Shown piece after piece: positions 6,139 to 64,000 of a stretch of 64,000 nt of DNA; the first letter of the stretch is position 1, and every line of letters starts with the position of its first letter. The stretch spans positions 29,759-93,758 of the forward strand of contig JAFZUT010000018.1 in assembly GCA_017618175.1 (NCBI GenBank). Reading direction: 5' to 3'. A model generated the notes under the pieces. It had not been told where the DNA came from and made no database searches. It was given only the letters and a program-made list of their open reading frames with translations. The position numbers were made by a program, and so were the translations under genes. The DNA comes from Alphaproteobacteria bacterium (GTDB lineage Bacteria; Pseudomonadota; Alphaproteobacteria; Rs-D84).

Positions 6139-8553
6139 CTATAACTCAATCGGCGGGAAACAATCACCACCCGCATCCGGACAGCAATTGAAACCTTGGT
6201 CACCCATATCGGTGTATGTTTCCCCCGGACAGCATCCATTCGCATCCGGTGCCGCCCCACCATCACACGTCACAACCGAGGTGCTTTGTGTTGTGGTGGA
6301 TGAACCAGACGAAGAAGTTTTCTTGAACGGATTTTGAATTGAACCATCGTCGTTATATTTCAATCCCAAAACCTGTTCATTATATGCCTGGGAACCTTGT
6401 GGGGTTTTGGTTGCCATCTGTTGTTGCTGGTTTTCAAACACCGCCTTTTGTTTTGCATTATTTATCGCATCATATGTCCCCATCGAACGGCAATAGAAAT
6501 CAACAGTATTGAAATTATAACCCCGCCGTTCCATTTCCGTTTTTTCATCGATGTCCGCCATATATGCCCCGGTTTCTTTACCATTAGTATCTTTAACAGG
6601 GGTGCAAAATTCACTTATATTTGCGACCAACATTGAACGAACCTGACCAATCAATTCTTCTGTCTTGGATGGATCTGTTTCCGTAAAGTCATCTTCTTTG
6701 CCATCACGCTTTGGTGAATCCGGATAAGGCAATATTGCGCATCTGCGTGTATCGCCATTGTCTTGACCACAGGTCACAAACAAATCAACAGGTGAAAACA
6801 CCGTGATACGTGTACCGGCGGCGATTGAAAAAGGCGGTGTGGTGTTATCCATTAAATCCACCAATAATTTTGTGGCAACATTGTTCCACGCGGTAATAAT
6901 CTCGTTTTTGGCCAATTCAGATGAACGCACGGTGCCGGTCTGCACAACCGTGTTGTTATCCAAGTCAATTTGATTCACAAATGCATCAGATATAGGTGCA
7001 ATCATATTCACGGCCGCCGGTACAATTGCGGTCAACATCGGCATAACAAATTGTTGCAGATAATCGGTGCTGCCGTGACCGGGAACGCCTTTGCGTCCCT
7101 GGGAATCAGCGGCAAACGGCTGTTTTTTATTATCTGTAAAGTTAAATTCCACACCATCGGGGCGAATAAACTGGTACCATTTTATTTCCATACGACCAAC
7201 CGCCTTGTACGGGCCGGGCAATTCGCCCGTCACATATCCCAACATCAATGTTCCGGTTGGAATAATAACCGTACGACCATTGTCGGAATAAACATTACGG
7301 TCAACCGTTGCGCGTACCGGCAAACCACTTTGCAATAATTTAGAATCTGCCTGAATATCCGATACAATTGTTGCCGGAATCGGTTTATATTGACGCAGAA
7401 CAAAACTGCGGTCATATGGACGTGTTCCAACAACACCTTTATCATTATCGTATCCAGTAAATTCAGTTGTCTTTTTGCGCGGTTTTAACCTAACACCCGG
7501 TTGACGTGCCCCCGGCATAGATGCCAATTGTGAAGCCAACATATCCATATTATCAATTTGTTCCGCACGGGTGACGGTGTGACGCGTTGATGTGCCGCCA
7601 CCAAGCCGGGGCAGGCGGTCCGTCACAACAAAACGTATGTGTTCTGCGTCCGATCCAATTTTGCGTGTTGGATTATTTATGTCCATAATATAACCCGTGT
7701 CTGCATTATACATTCCGGTCGGCGTGTCACAGTTCGTATCAGAAAACGGGTGATAATAATACGCGCCCCCCATTGGTTTTATCCAACCACTTTGAATACC
7801 GGCGGTGTTATATGCCGGAAACGCAAAGTCCGAACAATTATTTTTGAACATATTGCGCGGCACGGCAACCGGTGCATTGTATGTGGGTTCATTAAAACTG
7901 ATTGGTGCCGCAATATTGTTCAGGTCATCTTGAAAATCCGTATCGTAAGCCCAATCATCAATTAAAGGTTCCGGTTCTGGCTCCGGCTCTGGTTCTGGGG
8001 CGGGCGCATCCGTACGTGACATTGGTTTTTCGCGCGCCCCGATAACCAGTGTAATAGCCTTGGGGTTATCAACTTCGGCACCGGTTTCAAACGCACTCCA
8101 CGTAATTGCGACATTTGCGTCAGTGGTGTTAATTGGGTGTTCTGGTTGATATTTAATATTTATGACGCACGGGGCATTTTCTTCGATAATGGTCTGGTCA
8201 TTTTTACATGTTTCGGTTGCAGAAATTCCAACGGCATCATTTGTATCGCCTTCGACCCGCACAACAACATTTGTAATCTGAACGCGCGTATTTGCAGAAA
8301 CAAAAAATTCTGTTTCGCGAACTTCACCCACCACCGTATCAGACCAATCGACCGGCGCATCGGGCGTAATAATCAATTCCGGTGTGGCCGGCAAAGAATT
8401 CGGGTCAATCACAACGCGTTGTGCCTTGCGATTTCCAACCAATATCATCAGTAACACAACCACGATAATAATTGCCGCCGCCAACAATATCCATTGAACA
8501 TATTGTGGCGTAGTTTTGCGAAACTCCGAAAATTGTTCACCGATTTTACTCAT
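6139..8553 (-). CDS. virB10: VirB10/TrbI-like type IV secretion core protein, enlarged (804 aa) with extra N-terminal, proline-rich and Cys-rich C-terminal regions
   Basis: N-terminal TM (WILLAAAIIIVVVLLMILV) and a (PE)n linker (APAPEPEPEPEPEP). VirB10/TrbI-type beta-barrel region at about aa 385-592 (LPVRATVDRNVYSDNGRTVIIPTGTLMLGY...RMEIKWYQFIRPDGVEF...AGTRITVFSPVDL). A further 212 aa follow, ending CDGGAAPDANGCCPGETYTDMGDQGFNCCPDAGGDC. Confidence 0.8.
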   Translation of the reverse strand: MSKIGEQFSEFRKTTPQYVQWILLAAAIIIVVVLLMILVGNRKAQRVVIDPNSLPATPELIITPDAPVDWSDTVVGEVRETEFFVSANTRVQITNVVVRVEGDTNDAVGISATETCKNDQTIIEENAPCVINIKYQPEHPINTTDANVAITWSAFETGAEVDNPKAITLVIGAREKPMSRTDAPAPEPEPEPEPEPLIDDWAYDTDFQDDLNNIAAPISFNEPTYNAPVAVPRNMFKNNCSDFAFPAYNTAGIQSGWIKPMGGAYYYHPFSDTNCDTPTGMYNADTGYIMDINNPTRKIGSDAEHIRFVVTDRLPRLGGGTSTRHTVTRAEQIDNMDMLASQLASMPGARQPGVRLKPRKKTTEFTGYDNDKGVVGTRPYDRSFVLRQYKPIPATIVSDIQADSKLLQSGLPVRATVDRNVYSDNGRTVIIPTGTLMLGYVTGELPGPYKAVGRMEIKWYQFIRPDGVEFNFTDNKKQPFAADSQGRKGVPGHGSTDYLQQFVMPMLTAIVPAAVNMIAPISDAFVNQIDLDNNTVVQTGTVRSSELAKNEIITAWNNVATKLLVDLMDNTTPPFSIAAGTRITVFSPVDLFVTCGQDNGDTRRCAILPYPDSPKRDGKEDDFTETDPSKTEELIGQVRSMLVANISEFCTPVKDTNGKETGAYMADIDEKTEMERRGYNFNTVDFYCRSMGTYDAINNAKQKAVFENQQQQMATKTPQGSQAYNEQVLGLKYNDDGSIQNPFKKTSSSGSSTTTQSTSVVTCDGGAAPDANGCCPGETYTDMGDQGFNCCPDAGGDCFPPIEL

Positions 8554-8577
8554 AATGACCCACCGTATTTTTGCGTA

Positions 8578-10131
8578 CTATTGAATACGAACCACTTGGC
8601 AACTGGCACCACTGAACTTTAACAATTGGTCGCAAAGTTTTTGTGCCGTATCAATATCCGGCATAGGCCCAATGCGCAACCGATACAAACGTGCCGCCGA
8701 AGATGTCGCGCCCAATTCGCCGACACCCTGTTCATCAACCGCATAAAATACGCTGTCTTTATATTTGGTCAGCAATCCTTGACCATCATTGCCACTGAAA
8801 CGCGCCATCAAATCTGCCCAGTAATCGTCCAATGCCTTGACACTGGTGTCTGATTTTAACTCGACCGCAACACCGCCTTGGTTCGTGGTAATAAGCGGAA
8901 TATTAGATTGCGGTAAATATGCCCCCGCCGTATTGCGCACCGTTGGCAACATGGTCATGCCGTTTGATGTTCCGCCGGTCGGCGTTCCATACATATTCAT
9001 CATAATTGCCCCCGATGTTGCCGCCGGCATATTCATTTGCACGCCATTTGTGGCCGGCATAGTGTTGTTTATATATGTTGGTGTCGTTGTGTAATTACCA
9101 TAACCGTTTTGAATTGCAACCTGGTCCGCGGTGTACAGGACGTTGTTCAACGATTGTCCCGACAACATACTTTGCGCAACATTCGCCTCGGCCAAGGCCA
9201 TAACACTTGCGGTGTCGGCAATCAAGAACGGTTTAGAACGTTTTTTGATACAAACAATGCGTTGACCACTGCGCAGAACCATATCGCCAACGGCCTCGAC
9301 AATCAACAACCGTCCGTCTTCGCCATCTGTGCGGAAACCAACCGGCGATTCGCCACCTTCGACCAACAACGATACAACCGGGCGTTGGGTCATAGAAATA
9401 ACTTTGTCGCCGAAATCAATATATGTAAACACCCGGTCGCGCCACACGCGTTCCGGCGCAATCACATAATCATCCGGGTTTGGAACAAATATATCTAAAT
9501 CAAAACGAAATTCGGACGGGTCAATTTTCATTGTTTTAATCCAATCATAATCTTCGCCGTCAACACCAATGGTTCCGCTTTTTGCCGGTGTCTTTTTGAA
9601 TATGGAATTCATGGCCCCACCGGTTTGTGCACCCGCAACGGCCATAGACGCCGGCAACCGTGCGCCACCATCCAATACAACATCAACCTGGGAATATGTG
9701 ATTTCCGATGCGTTTGACGGTTCGCTGCGCAGATAGAAAGTATAAACATTCCCAGATTTCCCCGTCACAATCAGGTTTGTATCGGAACCCATATTATCGG
9801 CCGCGGGCGTAATATACATTGTGCGACCACCCTGGGTTGCGTCAATGGAAAAGAATCCGTCATTGCCGACGATGGCCTCTTCTATTTGTTCGCCAACCGG
9901 TAAATTCACCATGGTCACCATACCATTGCGCAATTTAACCGGTAACACGGTTCCCGCATCCCAAGATAATTGGGCATATCCGGGTTTAATACTGCCCGAT
10001 GCCATATTTGCATTTGGGTTGTCCCATGCACCTTGGACGCCATAGTTCACCGCACGTGCGTCAAACGCAACAAACGCGACAATCGCGCCGATTAAAGATA
10101 TCTTTCCCGCAAATGATTTTAACAGTGTCAT
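8578..10131 (-). CDS. virB9: VirB9/CagX/TrbG-like type IV secretion core protein fused to a C-terminal SPOR-like domain
   Basis: Signal peptide. VirB9 N-domain pattern (VKLRNGMVTMVNLPVGEQIEEAIVGN...TNLIVTGKSGNVYTFYLRS) and C-domain pattern (PERVWRDRVFTYIDFGD...LLIVEAVGDMVLRSGQRIVCIKK). A Met/Asn/Thr/Gly-rich linker leads to the last ~99 aa, which match the SPOR pattern (LYRLRIGPMPDIDTAQKLCDQLLKFSGASCQVVRI). Confidence 0.8.
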   Translation of the reverse strand: MTLLKSFAGKISLIGAIVAFVAFDARAVNYGVQGAWDNPNANMASGSIKPGYAQLSWDAGTVLPVKLRNGMVTMVNLPVGEQIEEAIVGNDGFFSIDATQGGRTMYITPAADNMGSDTNLIVTGKSGNVYTFYLRSEPSNASEITYSQVDVVLDGGARLPASMAVAGAQTGGAMNSIFKKTPAKSGTIGVDGEDYDWIKTMKIDPSEFRFDLDIFVPNPDDYVIAPERVWRDRVFTYIDFGDKVISMTQRPVVSLLVEGGESPVGFRTDGEDGRLLIVEAVGDMVLRSGQRIVCIKKRSKPFLIADTASVMALAEANVAQSMLSGQSLNNVLYTADQVAIQNGYGNYTTTPTYINNTMPATNGVQMNMPAATSGAIMMNMYGTPTGGTSNGMTMLPTVRNTAGAYLPQSNIPLITTNQGGVAVELKSDTSVKALDDYWADLMARFSGNDGQGLLTKYKDSVFYAVDEQGVGELGATSSAARLYRLRIGPMPDIDTAQKLCDQLLKFSGASCQVVRIQ

Positions 10132-10158
10132 ATTTCCTTTCCCTTTTGCCTTTCATAT

Positions 10159-10818
10159 TTACTGTTTATACACCGTATCCAGTGGATCTCCACCACCTTC
10201 GACCGTATACCGCGAAACTTTGACCCCCAATGGGTTGTTCAAACGTTCCGCCCATTTAATTTGTGCATCATCCGTCATAGTAATTCCAATCAGGATTGTA
10301 TAATCTTTTTTGTCGGTTTGTCCATTATTATCTGAGCAATAATATTCAAATTTTACCGTGTATTGGTTGTCGCGTAATTGCATTGGCCGACCGCGGAAAT
10401 TCACGACACAGTTAAATGCAACATCGGGATAATCACTCATAATCGCCTGGTACAGTCCCGTTTTCTGGAACGCTTTGTATACATCTGGTGTGGACCATGC
10501 GGCAACGACGCCGTTGCTGCTACCCCATTTTTGCCGCATTATCGACATATTTTGTTCAATCTCATTGCGCGCACGCACATATTCCATAACAAATGCCTGG
10601 CGATAAGCCTCAAGATTTTCGTCATTTGGTGGCAATTCAGTAATTTGAATAACCGATGCACCTTCGGGTTTTGACGTTATAAAGAACACTTCCGGCCGGT
10701 TCAGCGGAAACATTTTTTCCAATGTCATAAACATTACAAACAACACAACCACGCACCCGGCGAACACAAAAACAAGCAATCTTGATAATAAAACCGGCGG
10801 TTCTATGCGGTTTTGCAC
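10159..10818 (-). CDS. virB8: VirB8-like type IV secretion inner-membrane protein
   Basis: 219 aa, single N-terminal TM, then a VirB8-type periplasmic domain (AFVMEYVRARNEIE ... NNPLGVKVSRYTVE, compare the canonical NPLGFxVTSYR ending). Confidence 0.75.
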   Translation of the reverse strand: MQNRIEPPVLLSRLLVFVFAGCVVVLFVMFMTLEKMFPLNRPEVFFITSKPEGASVIQITELPPNDENLEAYRQAFVMEYVRARNEIEQNMSIMRQKWGSSNGVVAAWSTPDVYKAFQKTGLYQAIMSDYPDVAFNCVVNFRGRPMQLRDNQYTVKFEYYCSDNNGQTDKKDYTILIGITMTDDAQIKWAERLNNPLGVKVSRYTVEGGGDPLDTVYKQ

Positions 10819-10947
10819 GGCACAATTCTCCCTTTACTTAAAACGATTGTAGAAAAATATTTACACCCAATGCAAGTGTTTTTTTAGTGATTTGTGCGAG
10901 TATTTGTTGTCAACAAAAAACGAATGCAATTCATTACATCCATAACA

Positions 10948-10978
10948 CCGCGCCATCACAATTTTTGTGATGGCGCGG
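10948..10978 (-). terminator. Strong hairpin terminator after the 199-aa secreted-protein gene
   Basis: CCGCGCCATCACAA-TTT-TTGTGATGGCGCGG perfect inverted repeat, about 25 nt downstream of the stop at 11004. Confidence 0.65.
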
Positions 10979-11003
10979 ATGGTATGAACAGAATTGTCGG
11001 ATT

Positions 11004-11603
11004 TTACGTTAACGGCGTATAGCACTTATTATTGCCGCACGCGCCACTGCAACAAGATTCGTTTTCGCTGCAATATTCGCCATCAACTTTACAATTACTT
11101 GCCTTGCCGCTTGGACGGCTGCTGTCGAATCCATCGGGTCCATAAACGATGCGTCCATGCAAGTTCCACAATAAACAATTACCGGATTCATCCGCGTCAA
11201 AACAATTTGCATAAACGGCGGTTGTTTCCGTCATTTCCGGCAAATTGTCCACCGTACTGGATATTTCATCCATCTCGTTATATAAATCATCCATAGCCGG
11301 AACAATATCACCCGCGGTCACCAGGTCCCCTTCGTGGCCTGAGACAACACCGCCGTTTTCATCGTCATAGCCTGTTTCAAAATCAAAAATCCCACGTTCA
11401 CCGATTACACCGTTACCGGTCGTTGTATATGTGACAACGGTTTCACCGGGGGTTGATGCGTTTGTTCCCGCCGCAGGTATTTTATTTTGTTTCAATGCAT
11501 CTTGGGCATCTACATAATCTTTGGATGTAACCGTGGAACTTGTTGCAAATGCGTTTAATGCTAAAACGGATGCGATTGCACCAATGAATAATGCCTGTCT
11601 CAT
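11004..11603 (-). CDS. Secreted protein (199 aa) with DYVD...KQxKI N-terminal motif, NCLLWNL motif and knottin-pattern Cys tail
   Basis: The ORF track starts at 11768, but the ATG at 11603 has RBS AAAGGGAGG and yields a signal peptide (MRQALFIGAIASVLALNAFA). Paralogous to 25848..26360. C-terminus is CKVDGEYCSENESCCSGACGNNKC. Confidence 0.75.
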   Translation of the reverse strand: MRQALFIGAIASVLALNAFATSSTVTSKDYVDAQDALKQNKIPAAGTNASTPGETVVTYTTTGNGVIGERGIFDFETGYDDENGGVVSGHEGDLVTAGDIVPAMDDLYNEMDEISSTVDNLPEMTETTAVYANCFDADESGNCLLWNLHGRIVYGPDGFDSSRPSGKASNCKVDGEYCSENESCCSGACGNNKCYTPLT

Positions 11604-11757
11604 AATATTCCTCCCTTTTTCCTTGTCGTCATCCCGATATAAATCGGGATCCCTTCTTTTTTCCTGATTTATAGTGTAACAAAAAGGTACCTTTTTTGTG
11701 ACCAGGTACCTTATTTTGTAAGTAATTGATTTTACTGAATCGCATTTTCTAAAAAAA

Positions 11758-11791
11758 GTGATGGACAAAAACGTACGTTTTTGACCATCAC
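11758..11791 (-). terminator. 34-nt near-perfect palindrome followed by T7 on the minus strand (terminator or attenuator in the leader of the 11603 gene)
   Basis: GTGATGGACAAAAACGT/ACGTTTTTGACCATCAC with one mismatch. The T-run follows on the minus strand. Confidence 0.5.
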
Positions 11792-11825
11792 AACTAAAAA
11801 ATTATGAACTTTTTAAAAATTTTAT

Positions 11826-11930
11826 TATCGGGCGGAACGCTAACACCGGGCCATGGCACCGCAACGCGGTGACTGGCGCAGTCTCGGCATAGCAATTGTA
11901 AAATTGCGAAGACGGATAACCATTGCCAAA
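11826..11930 (-). promoter_or_regulatory. Candidate structured RNA element (three adjacent hairpins closed by an outer stem)
   Basis: GC-rich island in an AT-rich spacer. Hairpins are GCAATT-TTAC-AATTGC, GACTG-CGC-CAGTC and CACCGC-GTT-GCGGTG. Possible closing pairing GTTATC/GATAAT. No known riboswitch class recognised. Confidence 0.3.
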
Positions 11931-11937
11931 AAAACAC

Positions 11938-11966
11938 TTGCGCCATATTTACAAAATATTTATAAT
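11938..11966 (+). promoter_or_regulatory. Sigma70-like promoter for tRNA-Trp-secE-nusG
   Basis: TTGCGC, a 17-nt spacer, then TATAAT, about 100 nt upstream of tRNA-Trp. Confidence 0.5.
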
Positions 11967-12067
11967 ATTTGCGCTTGATTTTCCGATAAACTGTGCTAAT
12001 CTTTACCGGAATATTGGGTGTGCGTTCGAACCAAATGCGCGGAAATGCGCGGGTTTGTCGTGGATAC

Positions 12068-12141
12068 AGGGGCATGGTTCAATGGTAGAACATCGGTCTC
12101 CAAAACCGCAGATGAGGGTTCGATTCCTTCTGCCCCTGCCA
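12068..12141 (+). tRNA. trnW: tRNA-Trp (anticodon CCA)
   Basis: 74-nt cloverleaf folded by hand. Anticodon loop CTCCAAA, T-loop TTCGATT, encoded CCA. Sits in the canonical position upstream of secE. Confidence 0.9.
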
Positions 12142-12197
12142 TAAAAAATGGGGTGGATGCACACCGAATGTTAAAAACAAAGGAAATTGGTGCGTCA

Positions 12198-12377
12198 ATG
12201 AAAAAAATAATGGATTTTATACGTGGGGTGCGGGCCGAATGGTTCAAAATTGTTTGGCCAACCCGGGCCGAGGTTGTACGCGCAACCATCATGATTCTGG
12301 TGTTTTCCGGTCTTGCCGCACTGTTTTTCTTTGTAGTGGACAGCATTTTAAACGCACTTGTTGGGTGGATTTTCTAA
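12198..12377 (+). CDS. secE: Preprotein translocase subunit SecE
   Basis: 59 aa with a single C-terminal TM. Position between tRNA-Trp and nusG fits. The longer track ORF (12018) would overlap the tRNA. Confidence 0.85.
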   Translation: MKKIMDFIRGVRAEWFKIVWPTRAEVVRATIMILVFSGLAALFFFVVDSILNALVGWIF

Positions 12378-25847: not shown

Positions 25848-26360
25848 ATGAGTAAAGTTTTATTATTCGGGCTAATCGCATCGGTTTTAACAATCAACGC
25901 ATTTGCCGATCCGGTCACAATCACGACCCAAGATTATGTTGATACCACGGTCGCCACCAAACAAGATAAAATATCCGCCCATGGTACGGTTAGTATTGGA
26001 AACGTTTCTGCCTATGGGCTTCCTGATTCTGTTATAACCGACACCGATACAGACGGTGTTGTCGCAAAACGGGTTATTATGTATGGTGCCGGTCCGTGGT
26101 ACGTTACAACCGACTATATGGGCAATGCTCTTAAACAAGGCGTACTTTTGACGCAAAACTCGATTAAGAGTATGGCGAACACTATGGGGTACAGTGACGA
26201 TGATTTGGACAAGGCATTGGTTTCCGCCGGTGTGATAAATGATGCCTTTCGTAAAACGAACGAGACAATATTAAATAGACAACTTAAAAAAGTCTGTGTT
26301 CAATGGATTGAAAATGTGGCCGAAACCGATGCAAATTGTTTGTTGTGGAATTTACCGTAA
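25848..26360 (+). CDS. Secreted protein (170 aa), paralogue of 11004..11603 (DYVD...KQDKI and NCLLWNL motifs)
   Basis: An internal ATG with RBS AGAGGGG gives the signal peptide MSKVLLFGLIASVLTINAFA. Shares TxDYVDxxxAxKQxKI and the C-terminal NCLLWNL with the 199-aa protein. Confidence 0.75.
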   Translation: MSKVLLFGLIASVLTINAFADPVTITTQDYVDTTVATKQDKISAHGTVSIGNVSAYGLPDSVITDTDTDGVVAKRVIMYGAGPWYVTTDYMGNALKQGVLLTQNSIKSMANTMGYSDDDLDKALVSAGVINDAFRKTNETILNRQLKKVCVQWIENVAETDANCLLWNLP

Positions 26361-29038: not shown

Positions 29039-32000
29039 ATGAAAAGACTTGCTATATTTATTGGTGGCCTGCTTGTGTTGCCCGCATTTGCTGAGGTTGC
29101 ACCTGTTTTATATGAAGATATTGAATACGCGGATGTTGTGTATGATGAATACGGCAATCCGGTGTATTACACCGATTATACGGACGCGGATTTAACCCCG
29201 GAAATGGACGAAAATGTGACGATGCCTTCTGTTCCTGCGTCACGCAGTGGATCCGCATCGCGTGCAAACACTAACCGCACAACAATCGGTCGAACGGTAC
29301 CCACAACCAATGCGGGTGCGGCCACGGGTCGTGCGTCTGCGGCAAATTCGTCACGTGTGGTGGCGGCGCGTACAACATCGAATTCTTCCCCACGTTCAAA
29401 CACCAATTCGCGCAGTGTTTCATCGCGTACAACATCAACCACGGCAACGCGCACAACAACCGATACAGATGCCACGCGGGCGGCGGCAACCCGTGCAACG
29501 GGCGGGGCGGGGCGTACCGCAACATCAACCCGCACAGGCGCATCCGGTGGTGCGACGGTGGCACGAACAACAACATCGCGTAATGCGACATCATCGCGCA
29601 CGGCAACGACCGGTGCACGTGTAAATCGTGCATCGACCAACGCGGCGGTGGGGGTGACCGGCAATGTTATATCTGCTGCGCCCATCCGGGTAACCACGGC
29701 CAGCGGCACAACAAACGCGGATTACCTTACCGACAGTGGCCAAAGATTATATAACGCAAACGGTGCACGTGTCAGTGTTGCGAACCGTGTTCCAACAATT
29801 CGTATGTCATCGGTCAGTGGCATTTCCACCGATACCACATCGGTCAGTGCGACCACCCCCGCAGAAATGGACGAATTGGCGGAATTAACCGATTATTGCA
29901 AGGCCCAATATGCGGCGTGCATGGATAATTATTGTAACGTCTTGGACGACAACCAAGGCCGTTGCAGTTGCAGTGCCAATATTAAAAATTATGCCAAGGC
30001 CGAGGCCGCATTGAAACAGGCAACCGAAGAATTGCAAGAGGTTGCACAAAAGATTCAATACATTGGTTTGTCCGCGCGCGAGGTTGAAACCCTGTTCACC
30101 CAGACCGAGGCGGAATTGAAAATGCAATCCACCACCGATACCAGTCAGTTAAAGACCAGTCTGGACAAGATAAAAGATATGATTATCGAGGTTCAATCCG
30201 GCAACGCATCATCTTCGAATTCGTCTTTCCTTTCGTTTGATTTATCGGGTCTGTTGGACTTTACTATTGACAGCACCGGTTTTGATTTATCTTCGTTCTT
30301 GGGTGGTTTTGGCACGAATTCAAACGGTATCAATAACCAACGCGGCGAAGAATTGTTCAAAACCGCAACAAATCGTTGCAAGGCGAACGTCTTAAAGGCC
30401 TGCACGGCCCAGGGTGTTGACGGTTCATTGGTTACGAACGCGTATGATTTAGAAATTGACCGCGAATGTATCGCCTATGAACGCAGCCTGAACGATTCCA
30501 ACGACCAAATGGTTGCAACGGTGCGCAACGCCAAAAGCGTTCTGCAAAAGGCGCGCCTGTTGGTGGAACAATCGAAAAACGAATACGATATGCGCGGATG
30601 CATAAACGCACTTGATTCCTGTATGCAGGATGAATACGTTTGCGGCACGGATTATGAAAAGTGCCTTGATCCGTCCGGCCGCTATATCGTGAACGGCGAA
30701 ATAGTTATTGGTACCGACCCGGGTCGCGCGGTGAATGGCATTGGAGACGCCACAAATGCCACGGGTGTGTTGGACGGCGATATATGCAGTATGAATTTGT
30801 ATAACGTTTGGAATTATGGTTCATCCACGGCGGGCCAAACAACGGCCGGTTGCAAAAACGCATGGAACAGTTACAGCCTGAACGGTTCCAACAATGGTAA
30901 TTTGGCGGATTATATAAACACAACCGTGACGGCAACTGCGGCCAAGAACGGCGGTTTGGGTATGTCTGAATTTATCCAAAACAAAATCGGTTATGTTGAT
31001 GGCGACAAAAATTATGGTATGTGCATATCGGTGCTGAATAAATGCCAAGATTACACATACACCGGCAAGGGTTCTTCGCGTAAATATAACCCCGTGAACG
31101 AGGTTGTAAAACAATACTTGGATCGTATGTTGATTCAAATCAAGGCAAAGCAAGACCAAATCTTGGCGGAACACGCGGAAAGTTGTATAACGGACGTGAC
31201 AACATGCCTGTCCCAGAACAATTATCCGTTTGATGAGGCATCAACGAACCAGGTTCAGGCGAATATCGCAATCAACGCGTGCCGTTCAACAATCGTGACA
31301 TGTATGTCGGTGAATGGTTATTCGGTTGAAAACCCGACCCCATCTGATTTATCACGTTGGATTTGTGGTATTACCACCGGCAGTGTCGATTGCATCCCAA
31401 ATTCCGGCGGCGGTTCCGGGGGGGGTGAGACAACAACCTATACAGTTACATACAATTGCAACGGTGGAACTGGGACGGCACCGGCGTCACAAACGGTTCA
31501 ATATAACACTCAATTCATGACACGTGCCAACACATGTACCAAACCGAGTGCAAGTCAAACGTTTGATGGGTGGCTTGTGGGAAGTACGTCATCTGATAGT
31601 GTTGTTTGGCTTGCAAATAGGACATATACATACAATTATCAATCTGATAAAACACTTTATGCGCGTTGGACTACGGTGACGGGTTCTTGCACTCCAACGA
31701 CACTTGGAAATTGTAACGAAACAACGTGCGGAAGTTTGGGGGGAAATTACATATGGTGTACTACCGGGTCTAGCAGACCGTCTTGTAAATTAAGAACAGA
31801 TTGTCCGGCCGCATGCAGCGCGACCAATTTGCCGGCATGCGACAGTGATGAGTGTGGGTTGTACAATGGTAATTGGTGCGCATCGGGAACAACGATTAAC
31901 TTCTCATGCAGTGATACTGCAGGTGCCTGTTGTTTGGGCAATCCAACCGGTTGCACGCGCAATCAGTGTGATGCCCTGAATTATAAATGGTGTGTCCAAA

Positions 32001-32200
32001 GAACTGGCGATACACCCAAGTGTACGAGTCAGTCATATCAAGTGGAATGTTGTGTTGGTTCTGTCGCGGGTTGCGCACGCGAGCCGGATTGTATCGCCGT
32101 TGGTGGAACGTGGAATGGGACCAGTTGCAGTGGCAGTGGAGATGATGGTAGGTACCAATATAATACGATAGAAATTGAAGGTGCGGAAGTAAATCCATAA
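29039..32200 (+). CDS. Large secreted multidomain Cys-rich protein (1053 aa)
   Basis: Signal peptide (LLVLPAFAEV). Arg/Ser/Thr/Ala-rich low-complexity region at about aa 66-215. Long helical region with six C-x6-7-C motifs. One Listeria-Bacteroides (InlB B-repeat) type domain at aa 800-878 (YTVTYNCNGGTG...FDGW...TLYARW). Four tandem 4-Cys modules at aa 884-1030. Confidence 0.8.
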   Translation: MKRLAIFIGGLLVLPAFAEVAPVLYEDIEYADVVYDEYGNPVYYTDYTDADLTPEMDENVTMPSVPASRSGSASRANTNRTTIGRTVPTTNAGAATGRASAANSSRVVAARTTSNSSPRSNTNSRSVSSRTTSTTATRTTTDTDATRAAATRATGGAGRTATSTRTGASGGATVARTTTSRNATSSRTATTGARVNRASTNAAVGVTGNVISAAPIRVTTASGTTNADYLTDSGQRLYNANGARVSVANRVPTIRMSSVSGISTDTTSVSATTPAEMDELAELTDYCKAQYAACMDNYCNVLDDNQGRCSCSANIKNYAKAEAALKQATEELQEVAQKIQYIGLSAREVETLFTQTEAELKMQSTTDTSQLKTSLDKIKDMIIEVQSGNASSSNSSFLSFDLSGLLDFTIDSTGFDLSSFLGGFGTNSNGINNQRGEELFKTATNRCKANVLKACTAQGVDGSLVTNAYDLEIDRECIAYERSLNDSNDQMVATVRNAKSVLQKARLLVEQSKNEYDMRGCINALDSCMQDEYVCGTDYEKCLDPSGRYIVNGEIVIGTDPGRAVNGIGDATNATGVLDGDICSMNLYNVWNYGSSTAGQTTAGCKNAWNSYSLNGSNNGNLADYINTTVTATAAKNGGLGMSEFIQNKIGYVDGDKNYGMCISVLNKCQDYTYTGKGSSRKYNPVNEVVKQYLDRMLIQIKAKQDQILAEHAESCITDVTTCLSQNNYPFDEASTNQVQANIAINACRSTIVTCMSVNGYSVENPTPSDLSRWICGITTGSVDCIPNSGGGSGGGETTTYTVTYNCNGGTGTAPASQTVQYNTQFMTRANTCTKPSASQTFDGWLVGSTSSDSVVWLANRTYTYNYQSDKTLYARWTTVTGSCTPTTLGNCNETTCGSLGGNYIWCTTGSSRPSCKLRTDCPAACSATNLPACDSDECGLYNGNWCASGTTINFSCSDTAGACCLGNPTGCTRNQCDALNYKWCVQRTGDTPKCTSQSYQVECCVGSVAGCAREPDCIAVGGTWNGTSCSGSGDDGRYQYNTIEIEGAEVNP

Positions 32201-32221
32201 AATATTACGAGGGATGATAAT

Positions 32222-33658
32222 ATGAAGAAATTTTTGACATGTGCGTTATGTTTTATGCCGTCTATTGCCGGTGCGGTGACTTTGTATTACACTCCGGGCC
32301 GTGAATGTCCCGGTTTGTACTTGAATTCTGCTGAAATCGGTTGCCCGGCGGATTCCCTGCGTGTGACACAATTAAATGTGACATCCCGTGCAGACGCAGA
32401 TTTTACTGGATATAATGTTGGCAATGTTGAAATTGTAGATTCCACCGGCAATATTAAATCAAACGCGGTTGAAACATTGGCCGCCGCAGCCGCAGCCGGC
32501 AATACTGTTTCCAAAGTCACCGGAAATTACGAATGCCAAACCGGCGCCCGGGAAAACAGCAACGGTGTGTGTGTCAATGCACTGTCTTTGGACACATCCA
32601 CATCTGAAAATATCGCATATATTGATTGGGAATCTTTGGTGAATAACACAAATCTTGATTCTGGTTACGAAATAGATCCCAATCAAATAAAAGATGATGG
32701 CGGCAAAGGCTGCTATTACGACAGGGATTTCGATATAGTGATTCATTGGTGCCCAAAAAATTATTCCGCAATTGATTATTCATATGGTGGTGCACATATT
32801 GCATACGGAAATAATCCCGTTGATTGGTCCGCTTTGCCATGCAATCAATCGACCGAGACATATCATTATCATTGGAACGGGGGAACATCTCTTGGAACAT
32901 ATACCAAAAATGGTGTTACACAAACTGAACTGGTGTTTCCATCTGCACTGGGTTGGTCTCCGCGCGGTTTGTATATTGTGGGTTATCCGGAATTCAAACC
33001 GAACGACAGTTCGTTTAATAACATTCCGTATTATTCGTTGCTTAAAACAATTGCAGATAATTTGGTGACAGAACAAAGTACGACGTGGGGACGTGCACGT
33101 TTGGGTTTACCTTTTAATCAGGCAAATGTCACCGATAGAATAATATTAAACAACACTGTGAATGGTTATGGCGACGCAAATGCAAATTGGCAGATTTGGA
33201 CGTGCCGTGGCGATGTGCAAACTGTTCATATGTATGCGGCATGGGCGCGTGATTGTGCCCCAGGTGATAGCAGCGCAACATGCACACGTCAAATTCAACG
33301 TCATGGTTTATCAAATCCGGACAAAGGCGACACCATGTATTACACATCGTGCACCAGTGGCACGCTTTCCGGCGATGGCACATATAACCCGTCTTGCGGC
33401 GAATGTTCGGCGACAAATTTAGGTCAATGTAGTAAAAAAGACTGCGTATTTTCGAACGCACATTGGTGTGTGGTTGGTGGTACGGAACAATGTGTGGCCC
33501 AAGGCGCATCCGCCAGAAGTTGTTGCGTTGACGATTTTACCGGCTGTGACAGCAAGGGTTGCGGCCTGATGGGTGGCACATGGGATGACACGACATTGAC
33601 ATGTACAGGCAATGACGGTGATGGTGACACCGGAGACGAAAGTCAAGAGGGTGCATAA
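32222..33658 (+). CDS. Secreted Cys-rich protein (478 aa) sharing the C-terminal 4-Cys module
   Basis: Starts 21 nt after the previous gene with RBS GAGGGA. Signal peptide present. The C-terminus carries two copies of the same module (CSATNLGQCSKKDCVFSNAHWCVVGGTEQC, CCVDDFTGCDSKGCGLMGGTWDDTTLTC) and an acidic tail. Confidence 0.8.
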   Translation: MKKFLTCALCFMPSIAGAVTLYYTPGRECPGLYLNSAEIGCPADSLRVTQLNVTSRADADFTGYNVGNVEIVDSTGNIKSNAVETLAAAAAAGNTVSKVTGNYECQTGARENSNGVCVNALSLDTSTSENIAYIDWESLVNNTNLDSGYEIDPNQIKDDGGKGCYYDRDFDIVIHWCPKNYSAIDYSYGGAHIAYGNNPVDWSALPCNQSTETYHYHWNGGTSLGTYTKNGVTQTELVFPSALGWSPRGLYIVGYPEFKPNDSSFNNIPYYSLLKTIADNLVTEQSTTWGRARLGLPFNQANVTDRIILNNTVNGYGDANANWQIWTCRGDVQTVHMYAAWARDCAPGDSSATCTRQIQRHGLSNPDKGDTMYYTSCTSGTLSGDGTYNPSCGECSATNLGQCSKKDCVFSNAHWCVVGGTEQCVAQGASARSCCVDDFTGCDSKGCGLMGGTWDDTTLTCTGNDGDGDTGDESQEGA

Positions 33659-40014: not shown

Positions 40015-41568
40015 ATGAGAAAGGCGTTAGTTTCGTTTTTGCCGGCAATTTTACTTCATTTTGTGGCCGTTGGGTCAAATGAAGGGGTGCCGGTTTATTA
40101 TCAAAAAGACAAGGCCGCAACATCTAATCAGTTAAATTATGGCGAATACGCGGACAAAGGATATACCAAATACGTCGGTACATCTGGTTCCAAACAGGTG
40201 GTCGGCACACGAACATACACATATCGTAATGAACGCACAAAAACCCAGGATATCCCAACATATATCGATGGTATGACATATACAAATTCTGGGGCGATGA
40301 CGGTGAACGGTGTTGCGACATCAATGGAACTTGAACGCAGAACACACATTTATGCCGGATATTCGCGGCGGTTTGCAGACTTTGAATTTCAAACGGGTGT
40401 AAATTCTATTCTTGAATGGGATGATATGGTTTTTAACGAGGTCAATGTTGGTGCCCGTCATGTATTTTCTTTGCACAATTTTGATTTGTTTGCGTTTGGT
40501 GAATACACATATGGCGATATGTCCCACGGTGGGCTGTCTATGGATTATGATTTGGAACCGTATGATTGGAATACGCCGAACGATGGAATTTTCACTATAT
40601 CTATGGGTGACCAATCCGGGCGTTCGCATCATTTGCGTTTCGGCATTGGGGCGCACCACGTGTGGGATATCGGCGGGTGGAAATTTTCACCGGTTATCGG
40701 TTATGAAATTTTCAAGCACGATTTGAAAATGTCCGATCACCTGTATCCTAACCAGGGTGTATACCTGCCATTGATGACCAGTGGTGGCGAATATGTATAT
40801 GGTGATGCCGAAGGAAACTATTTTTCTATGCCGACCAATGTCACACCACCCGATAATTGGTACCAGGTTTGTATGGGCCCCGAAGATATGCGTGTCGTGA
40901 ACCAATCCACCGGCAGCGCGATTGGTGGGTACGTGACGGGTTATGGAAACTTGTTGACCACGATGGAATATGACCCAAGTTGGGGTATTGTGCCGTGGGG
41001 CGTACCCGAAGGTGATTGCGTTATCATCGGTGGTGACGGCCCGATTAAGGTTGGTGGTGTGACGCACATTTACAACACAACGTGGAGTGGTTTCTATTTC
41101 GGGTTAGAGGTGGAAAAGCAAATGACGCTTGCGGATAAATTGCGTTTCTATTTCCAGGTCGGTTTGCCCAAGTATTCATCCGAAGGCATTTGGCCGAACC
41201 GTACCGATTGGCAACAAAGCCCAAGTTTCTTGGACGAAGGCAGCAACGGATCGTATTCTTATGCCGCGGAAATGGAATATGACCTGCGGTTGTCATCGCG
41301 TTTGCAATTGGCGTTAAAGGTTGACACAAATCTGTTCCATGTGGGCAAGATTCCGGGAAAACTGTATATTGCCGAATACACAGATTTCGTGTATGACGAA
41401 AATGGTCAATTGGTGGTATATGAAGGTATAGATCCAATAACGGGCGAAACGGTTCTGTATCCAGAATTAAATCAGGTTGCCGCCCATACCGAACACATCA
41501 GCAATTCTTTGAAACAGGCAACCTGGCAATCATTTGGATTGCACATAGGATTTAAATACGCATTTTAA
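40015..41568 (+). CDS. Outer-membrane beta-barrel protein (517 aa)
   Basis: Hydrophobic N-terminus, alternating beta-strand pattern rich in Tyr/Gly, aromatic C-terminus ...GFKYAF. Confidence 0.6.
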   Translation: MRKALVSFLPAILLHFVAVGSNEGVPVYYQKDKAATSNQLNYGEYADKGYTKYVGTSGSKQVVGTRTYTYRNERTKTQDIPTYIDGMTYTNSGAMTVNGVATSMELERRTHIYAGYSRRFADFEFQTGVNSILEWDDMVFNEVNVGARHVFSLHNFDLFAFGEYTYGDMSHGGLSMDYDLEPYDWNTPNDGIFTISMGDQSGRSHHLRFGIGAHHVWDIGGWKFSPVIGYEIFKHDLKMSDHLYPNQGVYLPLMTSGGEYVYGDAEGNYFSMPTNVTPPDNWYQVCMGPEDMRVVNQSTGSAIGGYVTGYGNLLTTMEYDPSWGIVPWGVPEGDCVIIGGDGPIKVGGVTHIYNTTWSGFYFGLEVEKQMTLADKLRFYFQVGLPKYSSEGIWPNRTDWQQSPSFLDEGSNGSYSYAAEMEYDLRLSSRLQLALKVDTNLFHVGKIPGKLYIAEYTDFVYDENGQLVVYEGIDPITGETVLYPELNQVAAHTEHISNSLKQATWQSFGLHIGFKYAF

Positions 41569-62604: not shown

Positions 62605-64000
62605 ATGAAAAAATATATACCAACCAAAGAAAAACCAATTGAAACATTGTGTCTATGCCGTGTTTCATCAGATAAACAAGCAAAGAAAGAAACTATCATG
62701 TCGCAAAAACAAGCATGTTTGGACTATGCGAAAAACAACGGCTTTGTTATAGACAGATTTTTTTATGAAGATGGTGTGTCTGGGTGGAAAACCGACCGAC
62801 CAGGGCTCGACATGATGGCGGAATATATAACACAAGAACAGAAAAACAAAAGAATAAGGGTCTTGTTCTTTGATATGTCGCGATTGTCGCGCAATTTAGA
62901 AGTGTTTAGCCGGTTTGAAAACTTGGTTATAAAATACGATATTGAGTTGCTGACGGTCACCGGTGGAAAGACCGCAAACAATGCTGCAGGTCGCTTTATG
63001 CGCGGATTTGATGTTTTGCGTGCCCAAATGTTTAGCGATGAATTATCGGAAACTACAATTGCAAAAATGCGGTCACAAATGCAAATGGGATATTACCCAT
63101 TAAATCCACCAGTGGGGTTAAAACGGGTAAAGGATGAACACAAAAAGGTCATATTAGTGCCGGATGAGCCAAAGGCCACATTGATACGGCAAGCGTTTGA
63201 AAAATATGCCTCGGGCGAATTGGCGACCAAACATGCGGTTGCAGATTTCTTAAATTCGCATGATGTGTGGAATGGGCGCAATATAACCGATACTTTGGCC
63301 AATGATATTTTGCACAATGTTGTTTATACCGGCATATTTGCTTATGACCCTTGGGGAATACCGCTCCAGGAGTGGAAAATTACCAAAATAATACCAATGG
63401 AATTGTTTGATGCAGTTCAAGCCCGATTAGATAAAAGTGGTTATAAATCATACAAATCCACTATTGGCGATGATTTTCCACTGAGACACGAGATATTTTG
63501 TGAACATTGCGGTCATCCATTAACTGGATATTACGCCAAAAGCGGCACCAAGGCATGTAAACATCCATATTACAGGTGCCATAACAAAGACTGTGAATTT
63601 CACAAGAAATCTATACGCAGAAACATTATTGAAAGGGCTTTTGTTGAAAAACTGCACACAGTAAAGGCCACAGATAAGTTCCTTGATTTATGCTGTGCTA
63701 TGATTGCCAAGATAGGCAAAATTAGGGAAAACGAAATAACCAGCGCAAACAACAAGACAAACGATAAGATAACGGCCATAAAGCAACGGATATCTGGAAT
63801 TACTGCGCTGGTTATGGATGCTATGGCAAGTGGAGATACAGATTTGGCCAACATATACCAGGGGCAAATTAAAGAACTAAATGCCAACAAGCAGGCATTG
63901 GAAAAACAATTGGAAAGCAACACCATATCCAATGTTGCCGAAAAATTTCGAACCGCCATTGAAAACGGACGCGAATTTTTCAAACGACCGGATTTACTGT
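62605..64000 (+). CDS. Large serine recombinase (integrase), 3' end outside window
   Basis: Open frame from the ATG at 62605 (RBS AAAGGGAAA) to the window end. Not in the ORF track because it has no stop. Resolvase catalytic motif LCRVSSDKQ, recombinase domain, Zn-ribbon CEHCGHPL...YYRCHNKDC, then coiled coil. Confidence 0.85.
   Translation, partial: MKKYIPTKEKPIETLCLCRVSSDKQAKKETIMSQKQACLDYAKNNGFVIDRFFYEDGVSGWKTDRPGLDMMAEYITQEQKNKRIRVLFFDMSRLSRNLEVFSRFENLVIKYDIELLTVTGGKTANNAAGRFMRGFDVLRAQMFSDELSETTIAKMRSQMQMGYYPLNPPVGLKRVKDEHKKVILVPDEPKATLIRQAFEKYASGELATKHAVADFLNSHDVWNGRNITDTLANDILHNVVYTGIFAYDPWGIPLQEWKITKIIPMELFDAVQARLDKSGYKSYKSTIGDDFPLRHEIFCEHCGHPLTGYYAKSGTKACKHPYYRCHNKDCEFHKKSIRRNIIERAFVEKLHTVKATDKFLDLCCAMIAKIGKIRENEITSANNKTNDKITAIKQRISGITALVMDAMASGDTDLANIYQGQIKELNANKQALEKQLESNTISNVAEKFRTAIENGREFFKRPDLL

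Follow-up and report, generated by a model that had tools for sequence, protein, structure and literature searches.

We analysed a stretch of 64,000 nucleotides from an Alphaproteobacteria bacterium of the lineage Rs-D84 (contig JAFZUT010000018.1, positions 29,759 to 93,758), hereafter the window, around a gene coding for a 199-residue secreted protein whose C-terminus has the cysteine pattern of an inhibitor cystine knot (ICK), or knottin. The gene is on the minus strand, 185 bp upstream of virB8 and in the same orientation as the virB8-virB9-virB10 genes of a type IV secretion system (T4SS). On its opposite side, in divergent orientation, lie tRNA-Trp, secE, nusG, rplKAJL and rpoBC. It is preceded by a short DNA segment bounded by two palindromic sites and belongs to a family of proteins with a conserved N-terminus and interchangeable C-terminal tips (Table 1). 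An earlier sequence-only reading of this DNA had placed the cysteine pattern at 11022-11093, at the C-terminus of the secreted protein, and it was confirmed there.

The N-terminus of the protein, MRQALFIGAIASVLALNAFA followed by TSS, reads as a Sec signal peptide with n-, h- and c-regions and with AFA at positions -3 to -1, in accordance with the AxA rule. The signal peptide is kept across all aligned members of the family. The protein contains eight cysteines (134, 143, 171, 178, 184, 185, 189 and 194) and is present in identical form on 5 metagenome contigs. Searches of Pfam, NCBIfam and PHROGs with the whole protein returned nothing above threshold. The AlphaFold2 model of the full-length protein, calculated from a 70-sequence family alignment, consists of β-hairpins and one long helix. 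In the linker ahead of the C-terminal tail, residues 164-168 have a predicted local distance difference test (pLDDT) score below 50, and this linker is shorter or missing in most homologues.

Table 1. Coordinates of the knottin-tipped gene, its upstream switch and the other window features discussed in the text.
Feature	Position	Strand	Basis
Coding sequence, 199-residue secreted protein	11004-11603	minus	open reading frame and translation from ATG; stop codon 11004-11006
Sec signal peptide, residues 1-20, MRQALFIGAIASVLALNAFA then T	11544-11603	minus	read off sequence
Conserved N-terminal module, residues 24-74	11382-11534	minus	17 invariant columns among 22 sequences
Disulfide-stapled β-hairpin, residues 127-153 (C134..C143-LLWNL..VYG), junction before variable tip	11145-11225	minus	pLDDT 92-94
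Low-confidence linker, residues 154-170, GPDGFDSSRPSGKASN	11094-11144	minus	pLDDT 52-62
Knottin (ICK-type) module, residues 171-194	11022-11093	minus	conservation, PDB profile, model and fold matches, chance test
GC-rich 12-bp hairpin, CCGCGCCATCAC-AAAAATT-GTGATGGCGCGG, 26 nt past stop codon	10948-10978	minus	read off sequence
5′UTR hairpin ending in CGGGATGACG, REP-like repeated element	11631-11650	minus	hairpin scan and sequence
Gene-proximal hix/gix-like palindromic site, GGTCACAAAAAAGG-TA-CCTTTTTGTTAC	11676-11703	minus	boundary of inverted segment
86-bp invertible segment, centre to centre of the two GTAC cores	11689-11774	minus	cross-assembly comparison
Distal hix/gix-like palindromic site, GGTCAAAAACG-TA-CGTTTTTGTCC	11763-11786	minus	sequence scan
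virB8-virB9-virB10 (context only)	6139-10818	minus	Pfam and NCBIfam
VirB8	10159-10818	minus	PF04335, E = 2.7e-15
VirB9/CagX with C-terminal SPOR domain (peptidoglycan-binding; PF05036, E = 8e-5; 8578-8700)	8578-10131	minus	
VirB10/TrbI	6139-8553	minus	Pfam and NCBIfam
Tail-less paralogue ending in CLLWNLP and stop	25848-26360	plus	tblastn E = 2e-12 and translation
Candidate periplasmic disulfide oxidase: signal peptide, thioredoxin-fold CPHC, C-terminal transmembrane segment	47941-48531	plus	translation; Pfam Glutaredoxin E = 4.7e-6

The tail translates as CKVDGEYCSENESCCSGACGNNKC, which corresponds to C-x6-C-x5-CC-x3-C-x4-C. A generic ICK regular expression has this single match in the six frames of the window, where 0.06 matches are expected (100 shuffles). 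The same C-C-CC-C-C framework, with loops within the ICK range, is found in 19 distinct homologous tails. All six cysteines are invariant in an alignment of 14 tails (A3); in an alignment of 17 tails (A2) five of them are invariant and the sixth is displaced by two long-loop members. The consensus across the 14-17 aligned tails is CxxxGExC.....CCxGxC..N..C. When the 17-tail profile was compared with all PDB chain sequences, the matches were knottins in 30 cases out of 30. The best was Aca toxin 1 (6nk9; E = 4.5e-5), and the others included spinach trypsin inhibitor III, theraphotoxins, hainantoxin, conotoxins, asteropsins, wrightide and omega-atracotoxin. Pfam searches with residues 163-197 gave UPF0506 (E = 0.004), WAP, Conotoxin_I2 and Conotoxin, all below their gathering thresholds. 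A profile of the whole family had three non-significant knottin matches among PDB sequences, located on the tail columns (E 1.7-4.4), and none in its N-terminal part. Outside the tail, the protein had no Pfam, NCBIfam, PDB-sequence or BFVD match.

Structure prediction gave a similar picture. The last 30 residues of the AlphaFold2 model have a pLDDT of 83-86. The high-probability Foldseek matches of the whole model in the PDB are ICK toxins superimposed on the tail only (9nvh, 1hvw and 5fzv), and the same model had no credible match among the BFVD viral structures. The superposition on ICK toxins spans 25 residues, with a target TM-score of 0.82, a root-mean-square deviation of 0.8 Å and 40% identity for 1hvw, and 0.5 Å and 36% identity for 5fzv. 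A tail-only model (pLDDT 76), whose alignment was built from database proteins, retrieved eight matches, all eight of them ICK or related toxins, with the weak E-values expected for 40 residues. An ICK module at the C-terminus is thus supported by the PDB profile and the model, with Pfam matches below threshold. The expected disulfide bonds would be 171-185, 178-189 and 184-194, i.e. the knotted I-IV, II-V and III-VI topology. The ICK framework proposed by the sequence-only reading therefore holds. The tail modelling and the search for homologues that it suggested agree with an ICK module, and the profile search gave knottins alone among PDB sequences but only sub-threshold families in Pfam. 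Its remark that such modules are rare in bacteria is a fair statement, since a 2025 preprint (10.1101/2025.05.13.653811) that scanned AlphaFold proteomes reports no knottins in bacterial proteomes and none in the bacterial literature. The same preprint suggests that knottins require the endoplasmic reticulum for folding.

A protein search returned 163 homologues, all unannotated and all from metagenome-assembled genomes (MAGs) of gut or rumen Alphaproteobacteria. A scan of GTDB, with one genome per species, located 79 loci, all in Candidatus Enterousia or in rumen or faecal MAGs. There are 16 loci in RUG585 (three scaffolds, 0.86 Mb in total) and 20 in one Enterousia MAG, and several loci hold two or three family copies. 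The family was therefore found only in Enterousia/Rs-D84 gut Alphaproteobacteria and occupies at least 16-20 loci per roughly 0.9-Mb genome. Genomes of this group are smaller than 1 Mb, lack respiration and standard transporters and do not accumulate pseudogenes, and a dependence on partner cells has been proposed for them (PMC12306168).

All members share the signal peptide, an N-terminal stretch, a variable middle and the junction C-x(5-13)-C-[LI]LWNL..VYG. The N-terminal stretch is near-invariant (TVTSKDYVD..KQNKIP..GTN..TPG.TVVTYT..G.IGERGI), and a helix stands ahead of the disulfide-stapled β-hairpin. At the junction, no variation occurs at C143 and L145, and the conservation of C134 is 90% or higher. 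What follows the junction differs from one member to another: the ICK module, at least five other six-cysteine frames (such as C5C4C10C4C1C and C5C3C2C4C5C), tandem cysteine modules, poly-Asn tails, non-cysteine domains of 130-220 residues, or no tail, some paralogues stopping immediately past the junction hairpin. The tail-less paralogue of the window has neither a Cys-rich tail nor a switch in its upstream sequence. Because the ICK framework is confined to a subfamily of about 19 tails, the knottin is one interchangeable tip and not the hallmark of the family. The conservation of the cysteines, on which the sequence-only reading depended, thus stands within this subfamily (six invariant cysteines in 14-17 tails) but not across the family, most homologues having other cysteine frameworks, large non-cysteine domains or no tail. 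One large tip matches the C-terminus of PHROG 18629, a 'tail protein' (E = 1.2e-8). Pfam searches with ten other tail types gave sub-threshold matches only, to small eukaryotic Cys-rich families (scorpion toxin, EB, WAP and late-nodulin), and those with five long family members gave no matches. In one clade the genes form tandem pairs, a short poly-Asn-tailed member being followed by a member of 270-355 residues with a large C-terminal domain that contains the motifs LPxGYTxLEYIESTGTQYIDTG and GMYDxVxxxFxxNxxxGxFxAGP (loci L043, L045, L048, L053-L057, L061, L065, L070, L073, L075 and L079).

The conserved N-terminal module points to phage tail fibres. A profile of residues 24-74, searched against 1.84 billion representative proteins with a cut-off of E ≤ 1e-3, matched 278 clusters, which include proteins of 1319-2278 residues with 8-20 repeats of the motif (..HAATKxYVDxADAxKLxLxGGTMTG..). 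Three of the repeat proteins (1319-2052 residues, 17-20 repeats each), matched at E 1e-22 to 6e-17, correspond to the PHROG tail-fibre families 16641, 8378 and 19567 with E = 3.5e-61 to 2e-103; the window protein itself has no PHROG match. Since the profile matches the repeats of tail-fibre proteins, the family protein begins with a single tail-fibre repeat unit, which is probably an oligomerisation or attachment stalk.

The two hix/gix-like palindromic sites upstream of the gene are the only matches in the window, with 0.11 expected by chance. The upstream regions of many paralogues are laid out alike: about 75 bp of sequence, in which TTCAGTAAAATCAA occurs, stand between two palindromes, and a -10-like box follows the second of these. 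The orientation of the segment was compared in four assemblies, from different samples, that encode an identical protein. L085 and L086 have the switch oriented as in the window. In L087, the 86 bp from 11689 to 11774 are the exact reverse complement, and the sequence from the proximal site through the gene is identical. The element precedes 25 distinct family loci and is flipped in four of them; besides the window, it was noted in L087, L008, L044 and L038.

Comparison of the two orientations suggests how the switch could act. Flipped copies have T[GA]GACA at 17-18 nt from TACACT, TACCAT or CATAAT, and the TG of an extended -10 is frequently present as well. In unflipped copies the sequence is TGGTCA, at a spacing of 18-21 nt, or GGGACA. 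At this gene, the flipped state brings a TGGACA -35 to 17 nt from the fixed TGn-TACACT -10, and the window orientation offers TGGTCA with a 20-nt spacer, so that good -35/-10 geometry exists in the flipped state alone. Given the T[GA]GACA spacing of flipped copies, the end of the segment may supply the -35, flipped being the ON state. The window copy would then have been assembled in an OFF or weak state.

The region around the switches varies in other ways. The switch region is unstable between samples: in L086 (1270-1515) a 19-bp duplication affects a half-site, and in L089 (340-600) both the upstream neighbour of a 99%-identical gene and the hairpin in its 5′ untranslated region (UTR) are different. 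This instability suggests recombination between the switches of different loci. In a distant clade (L030, L032 and L073), T tracts of 12-15 nt lie about 60-110 nt before the ATG, near a TTGATT-17-TATAAT promoter, instead of an inversion switch; they could allow slipped-strand phase variation. The 5′UTR hairpin of the window gene, which resembles a repetitive extragenic palindrome (REP), ends in the 10-mer CGGGATGACG, present in 5 copies in the window (at 11627, 26465, 26486, 33695 and 33824) against 0.14 expected. Many family genes of other genomes likewise have GC-rich hairpins with this ending in their 5′UTRs and flanks. Rfam recognised only tRNA-Trp in 10800-12200 and had no match for the CGGGATGACG hairpin element. 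Two scans of JGI metagenome DNA, one with this locus and one with the switch core, gave zero matches.

A candidate for the invertase was found in a sister lineage. In L045 (5070-5960), from a more distant rumen MAG, a small serine recombinase of 199 residues (E = 6e-12 to phage Mu Gin) adjoins, in divergent orientation, a switch of about 110 bp that precedes a family gene. This switch is flanked by ..AAAAAACC-AA-GGTTTTT.. and ..AAAAAACC-TT-GGTTTTTGATAC... In the record of phage Mu, the gix sites are TTATCCAAAACC-TC-GGTTTACAGGAA; they share the layout AAAACC-NN-GGTTT with the L045 sites, and the layout of the two window sites is comparable to theirs. Salmonella hixL and hixC presumably resemble the L045 sites more than Mu gix does. 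Invertases of the L045 type form more than 120 clusters at 74-97% identity, with PF00239 and PF02796, and one source names the protein 'DNA invertase Pin-like'. In two further contig sets (L102-L107, 2680-3600), the invertase lies beside the same type of switch upstream of a gene for a trimeric autotransporter adhesin with a YadA anchor. L102 and L104 carry opposite orientations of the adhesin locus, 105 of 111 positions being identical as reverse complement and 66 of 111 in direct comparison.

The slot between secE-nusG and virB8 holds a family member in three species: that of the window, RUG585 (L001/L006) and an Enterousia MAG (L067). The genes flanking the slot are 79-99% identical across the three species, virB8-virB9-virB10 being 79-93% identical. 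The slot gene of RUG585 is 48% identical to that of the window and has an ICK tip too; that of L067 codes for 294 residues, aligns over the first 55 residues only and has no Cys tail. In the GTDB scan, virB genes lie within 6 kb at two distinct places only among the 79 loci; about 20 paralogues sit elsewhere in the genome, apart from T4SS genes; and in L089 the 99%-identical gene has a different upstream neighbour and 5′UTR. A GC-rich hairpin follows the stop codon and is the probable end of the transcription unit, although the terminator scan made no call there because no T-run follows it, and we read a promoter-like TTGCAT-18-TACAAT ahead of virB8. The same-strand position directly upstream of virB8 noted in the sequence-only reading is thus correct, but a shared operon was not demonstrated, the gene having its own switch and hairpin. 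With unlinked paralogues and an L067 gene devoid of Cys tail in addition, the link to the T4SS is a conserved adjacency and not a demonstrated functional unit.

Three identities suggested by this setting or by the adhesins were rejected. VirB7 is incompatible with a signal peptide that ends in AFA before T, without a lipobox cysteine, and Pfam and NCBIfam gave no VirB-type family for the protein. For VirB5, there was no match to the VirB5/TrbJ family, and the model, with its β-hairpins and one long helix, is not all-helical. A trimeric autotransporter is contradicted by the absence of a PF03895 match and by the knottin at the end of the protein; the L102-L107 adhesins under the same type of switch do carry the YadA-type anchor. 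The VirB10 protein of the window has itself an unusual Cys-rich tail for a VirB10/TrbI protein, CDGGAAPDANGCCPGETYTDMGDQGFNCCPDAGGDCFPPIEL, with six cysteines and two CC pairs at its C-terminus (6139-6270, minus strand), and this tail is kept in L067.

Other genes of the window are of interest for the protein or for its surroundings. The candidate periplasmic disulfide oxidase has the motif CPHC, the active-site motif of DsbA, and its gene adjoins a CvpA-like gene. A 1053-residue protein with a Listeria-Bacteroides repeat, followed by an open reading frame of 478 codons without family match (29039-33658, plus strand), and a homologue of the Protochlamydia-type outer-membrane protein Pom (40015-41568, plus strand) are further candidate surface proteins. 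Among 30 open reading frames of the window searched for recombinases, only a large serine recombinase was found (62605-64000, plus strand). It is truncated by the end of the window, has a phage lysozyme (56744-57247, minus strand) beside it and is therefore probably a prophage integrase. The two flank several open reading frames without Pfam match, and the region is probably a prophage or integrated element. In L041, a homologue of this recombinase is separated from a family gene by 4 kb.

Taken together, we consider the chances slightly better than even that the gene codes for a phase-variable, Sec-exported, tail-fibre-like binding protein with an exchangeable C-terminal tip, a knottin in this copy. 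This reading draws on the sequence features, the family architecture, the knottin similarity of profile and model, the inversion at the locus and the sister-lineage invertase with its switch; the protein would be oligomeric, exposed at the surface and able to bind a ligand. A small serine invertase of the Pin/Hin type would flip the 86-bp segment between the palindromes and render expression phase-variable, the flipped end giving the TGGACA -35 for the fixed -10 (ON) and the window orientation being OFF or weak. After Sec export, four disulfides would form in the periplasm, C134-C143 and the three expected in the tail, with the CPHC thioredoxin-fold protein as the candidate oxidase. Carried on a flexible linker, the knottin would then act as a recognition knob that is compact and resists proteases, a plausible element in the gut or rumen. 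A repertoire of paralogues, each switched independently, would allow a cell to change the targets that it binds or the structures that it exposes, which fits the obligate partner-dependent lifestyle proposed in PMC12306168.

Several observations weigh against this interpretation. The L087 contig ends 246 bp upstream, and its distal flank is another switch-like block, unlike that of the window; since the flank differs, the L087 rearrangement may involve a third site, beyond a simple inversion. P0031, P0114 and P0057, present in several assemblies each, show a single orientation only. The ON and OFF states were called solely by consensus matching. For a Hin-type synapse, 86 bp would be a very small distance, which argues for a variant mechanism, and the sites of the window clade are centred on GTAC and not on AA/TT. 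L045 excepted, no small serine invertase was found in the 64-kb window or in about 1 Mb of sequence flanking family loci. On the protein side, support for the knotted connectivity of the tail is indirect and comes from superposition of the model on ICK toxins. As a monomer, the N-terminal half gives a poor model (pLDDT 50-58), and a trimeric fibre architecture would therefore follow from repeat-unit homology only, although low monomer confidence also fits an oligomeric fibre. Finally, the protein has no lipobox, β-barrel or YadA anchor, and neither a route across the outer membrane nor surface display is evident.

The chief alternative is the precursor of a secreted toxin, antimicrobial or inhibitor. 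Its conserved N-terminal part would act as carrier or pro-region, and its Cys-rich, hypervariable C-terminus would be released, in the manner of conotoxins, as a channel blocker, protease inhibitor or bacteriocin-like peptide. Toxin precursors have a conserved N-terminus and a hypervariable Cys-rich C-terminus, and this family has both. The tail matches mainly venom toxins, with plant and sponge knottin inhibitors besides, other tails have weak matches to scorpion toxin, WAP and late-nodulin, and a flexible linker stands ahead of the knottin in this copy. However, no conserved processing site is evident, the Cys module following VYG directly in most paralogues, and the next gene downstream is virB8 and not an immunity-like gene. 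Many paralogues lack a Cys tail or have large β-rich domains instead, one of them similar to the C-terminal end of a phage tail protein. Moreover, the protein begins with a tail-fibre repeat, and in sister lineages an adhesin is under the control of the same switch. The absence of a processing site and of an immunity gene, the non-cysteine tips and the adhesin under the same switch make us favour this explanation less, and we regard it as unlikely. The sequence-only reading had left ligand and toxin side by side; either would still be a conjecture about function, and the context favours a ligand-binding tip. Remnants of phage tail fibres or tailocins without function, with a knottin-like tail that is a chance Cys-rich extension, would account for the homology of the N-terminal module to tail-fibre repeats, for the tip like a phage tail protein and for the prophage genes adjoining P0003. 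But signal peptides and intact open reading frames are found in all members, at least 16-20 loci persist per genome without the accumulation of pseudogenes (PMC12306168), the cysteines do not vary inside the subfamily, dedicated switches precede the genes and most loci have no phage neighbours; we hold this explanation to be very improbable.

The position of the gene raises the further question of a role in secretion. An accessory or surface component of the T4SS, analogous to VirB5 or VirB7 or to the pilus variants of the Bartonella Trw system, either exported by VirB8-10, as pertussis toxin is by Ptl, or decorating it, is made attractive by the family member between secE-nusG and virB8 in three species and by the conserved Cys-rich C-terminal tail of VirB10 itself. 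In addition, the protein would pass through a Sec-dependent periplasmic intermediate, and VirB8-10 is the only outer-membrane-spanning secretion machinery identified in the 64-kb window. This role is nevertheless doubtful, and we rate it below that of a toxin precursor: a separate switch with a promoter-like junction precedes the gene and a hairpin follows the stop codon, virB8 has a promoter-like sequence of its own, and neither a lipobox nor a VirB-type Pfam or NCBIfam family is present. The roughly 20 scattered paralogues have no T4SS neighbours and virB genes are near two distinct loci of 79; at the same position in L067 the gene has a different architecture, and in L089 the same gene stands beside a different upstream neighbour. 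A bolder form of the preferred reading takes in this adjacency. The roughly 20 genes per genome of these obligately partner-dependent bacteria would be a combinatorial partner-recognition repertoire of invertase-switched, secreted mini tail-fibres whose disulfide-rich tips, independently evolved or acquired, include the first true ICK domains of a bacterial periplasm, and the virB8-10 copy would be displayed or exported through the T4SS to dock onto a partner. We put this forward tentatively, as considerably less probable than the phase-variable binding protein as such, if somewhat more so than the toxin precursor.

Knottins are regarded as eukaryotic (and viral) mini-proteins. A conserved bacterial ICK subfamily would, if true, mean that the fold is achievable in the periplasm and would supply knottin engineering with scaffolds of natural bacterial origin. 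Of possibly greater importance than the single tail is what the family suggests about how uncultured gut Alphaproteobacteria with genomes below 1 Mb might recognise partner cells: tail-fibre-like proteins whose tips can be exchanged, and whose genes each have a very short invertible switch, are a possible recognition set. The knottin fold, modular binding proteins of the tail-fibre type and Hin/Gin-type inversion are each known singly. We found no description of their combination, that is a bacterial ICK subfamily within a swappable-tip family of about 20 members in a 0.9-Mb genome, with junction-promoter switches of 86-111 bp.

The tail most closely resembles the ICK peptides omega-atracotoxin-Hv1a (1hvw), U3-scytotoxin-Sth1a (5fzv), Aca toxin 1 (6nk9) and the omega-conotoxins. 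They have in common with it the framework C-C-CC-C-C with loops of 6/5/0/3/4 and the consensus CxxxGxxC..(E/Q)CCSGxC..N..C, and the likeness extends to the profile match at E = 4.5e-5 and the sub-angstrom superposition of the model. Unlike them, the tail is found in a bacterial host, is fused to a carrier of about 170 residues instead of being a free cleaved peptide, and is one of many tips. Common descent and convergence are indistinguishable for such a short Cys-rich module. The family recalls phage tail fibres and the Mu G-segment in its tail-fibre repeat, its conserved N-terminus with an exchangeable recognition C-terminus, the invertase of the Gin/Hin type and the gix/hix-like sites. It differs from the G-segment in consisting of scattered chromosomal cellular genes with Sec signal peptides, and in that inversion flips an upstream segment of 86-111 bp without a coding swap, the variation residing in about 20 separate genes. 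With the Hin/Gin/Pin switches, such as that of Salmonella flagellar phase variation, it shares two imperfect palindromes of about 26 bp with A-tract half-sites, the occurrence of both orientations and, in sister lineages, a small serine recombinase with HTH_7 beside the switch. However, the hin segment is about 1 kb long and that of the family 86-111 bp, many switches are dispersed over each genome, and no invertase was found near this locus. Because the segment seems to carry the -35 element only, the promoter of the family genes would be formed at the junction.

The mpl/P35 lipoproteins of Mycoplasma penetrans and the capsule promoters of Bacteroides have one invertible promoter per paralogue. 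The family is similar in its many paralogues, each with its own short invertible element, in the combinatorial ON/OFF states that this makes possible and in its host-associated bacterium with a small genome; it differs in the protein, the diderm envelope, the type of recombinase and site, and the disulfide-rich tips. The TrwL and TrwJ copies of the Bartonella Trw system are variable surface subunits associated with a T4SS. The protein described here resembles VirB2, VirB5 and VirB7 neither in sequence nor in fold and has no lipobox, and most copies of its gene lie away from T4SS genes. Like TrwL/TrwJ, VirB5 and VirB7, it is multi-copy, variable and exported, and its gene heads a virB8-10 cluster at the place where virB7 would be expected.

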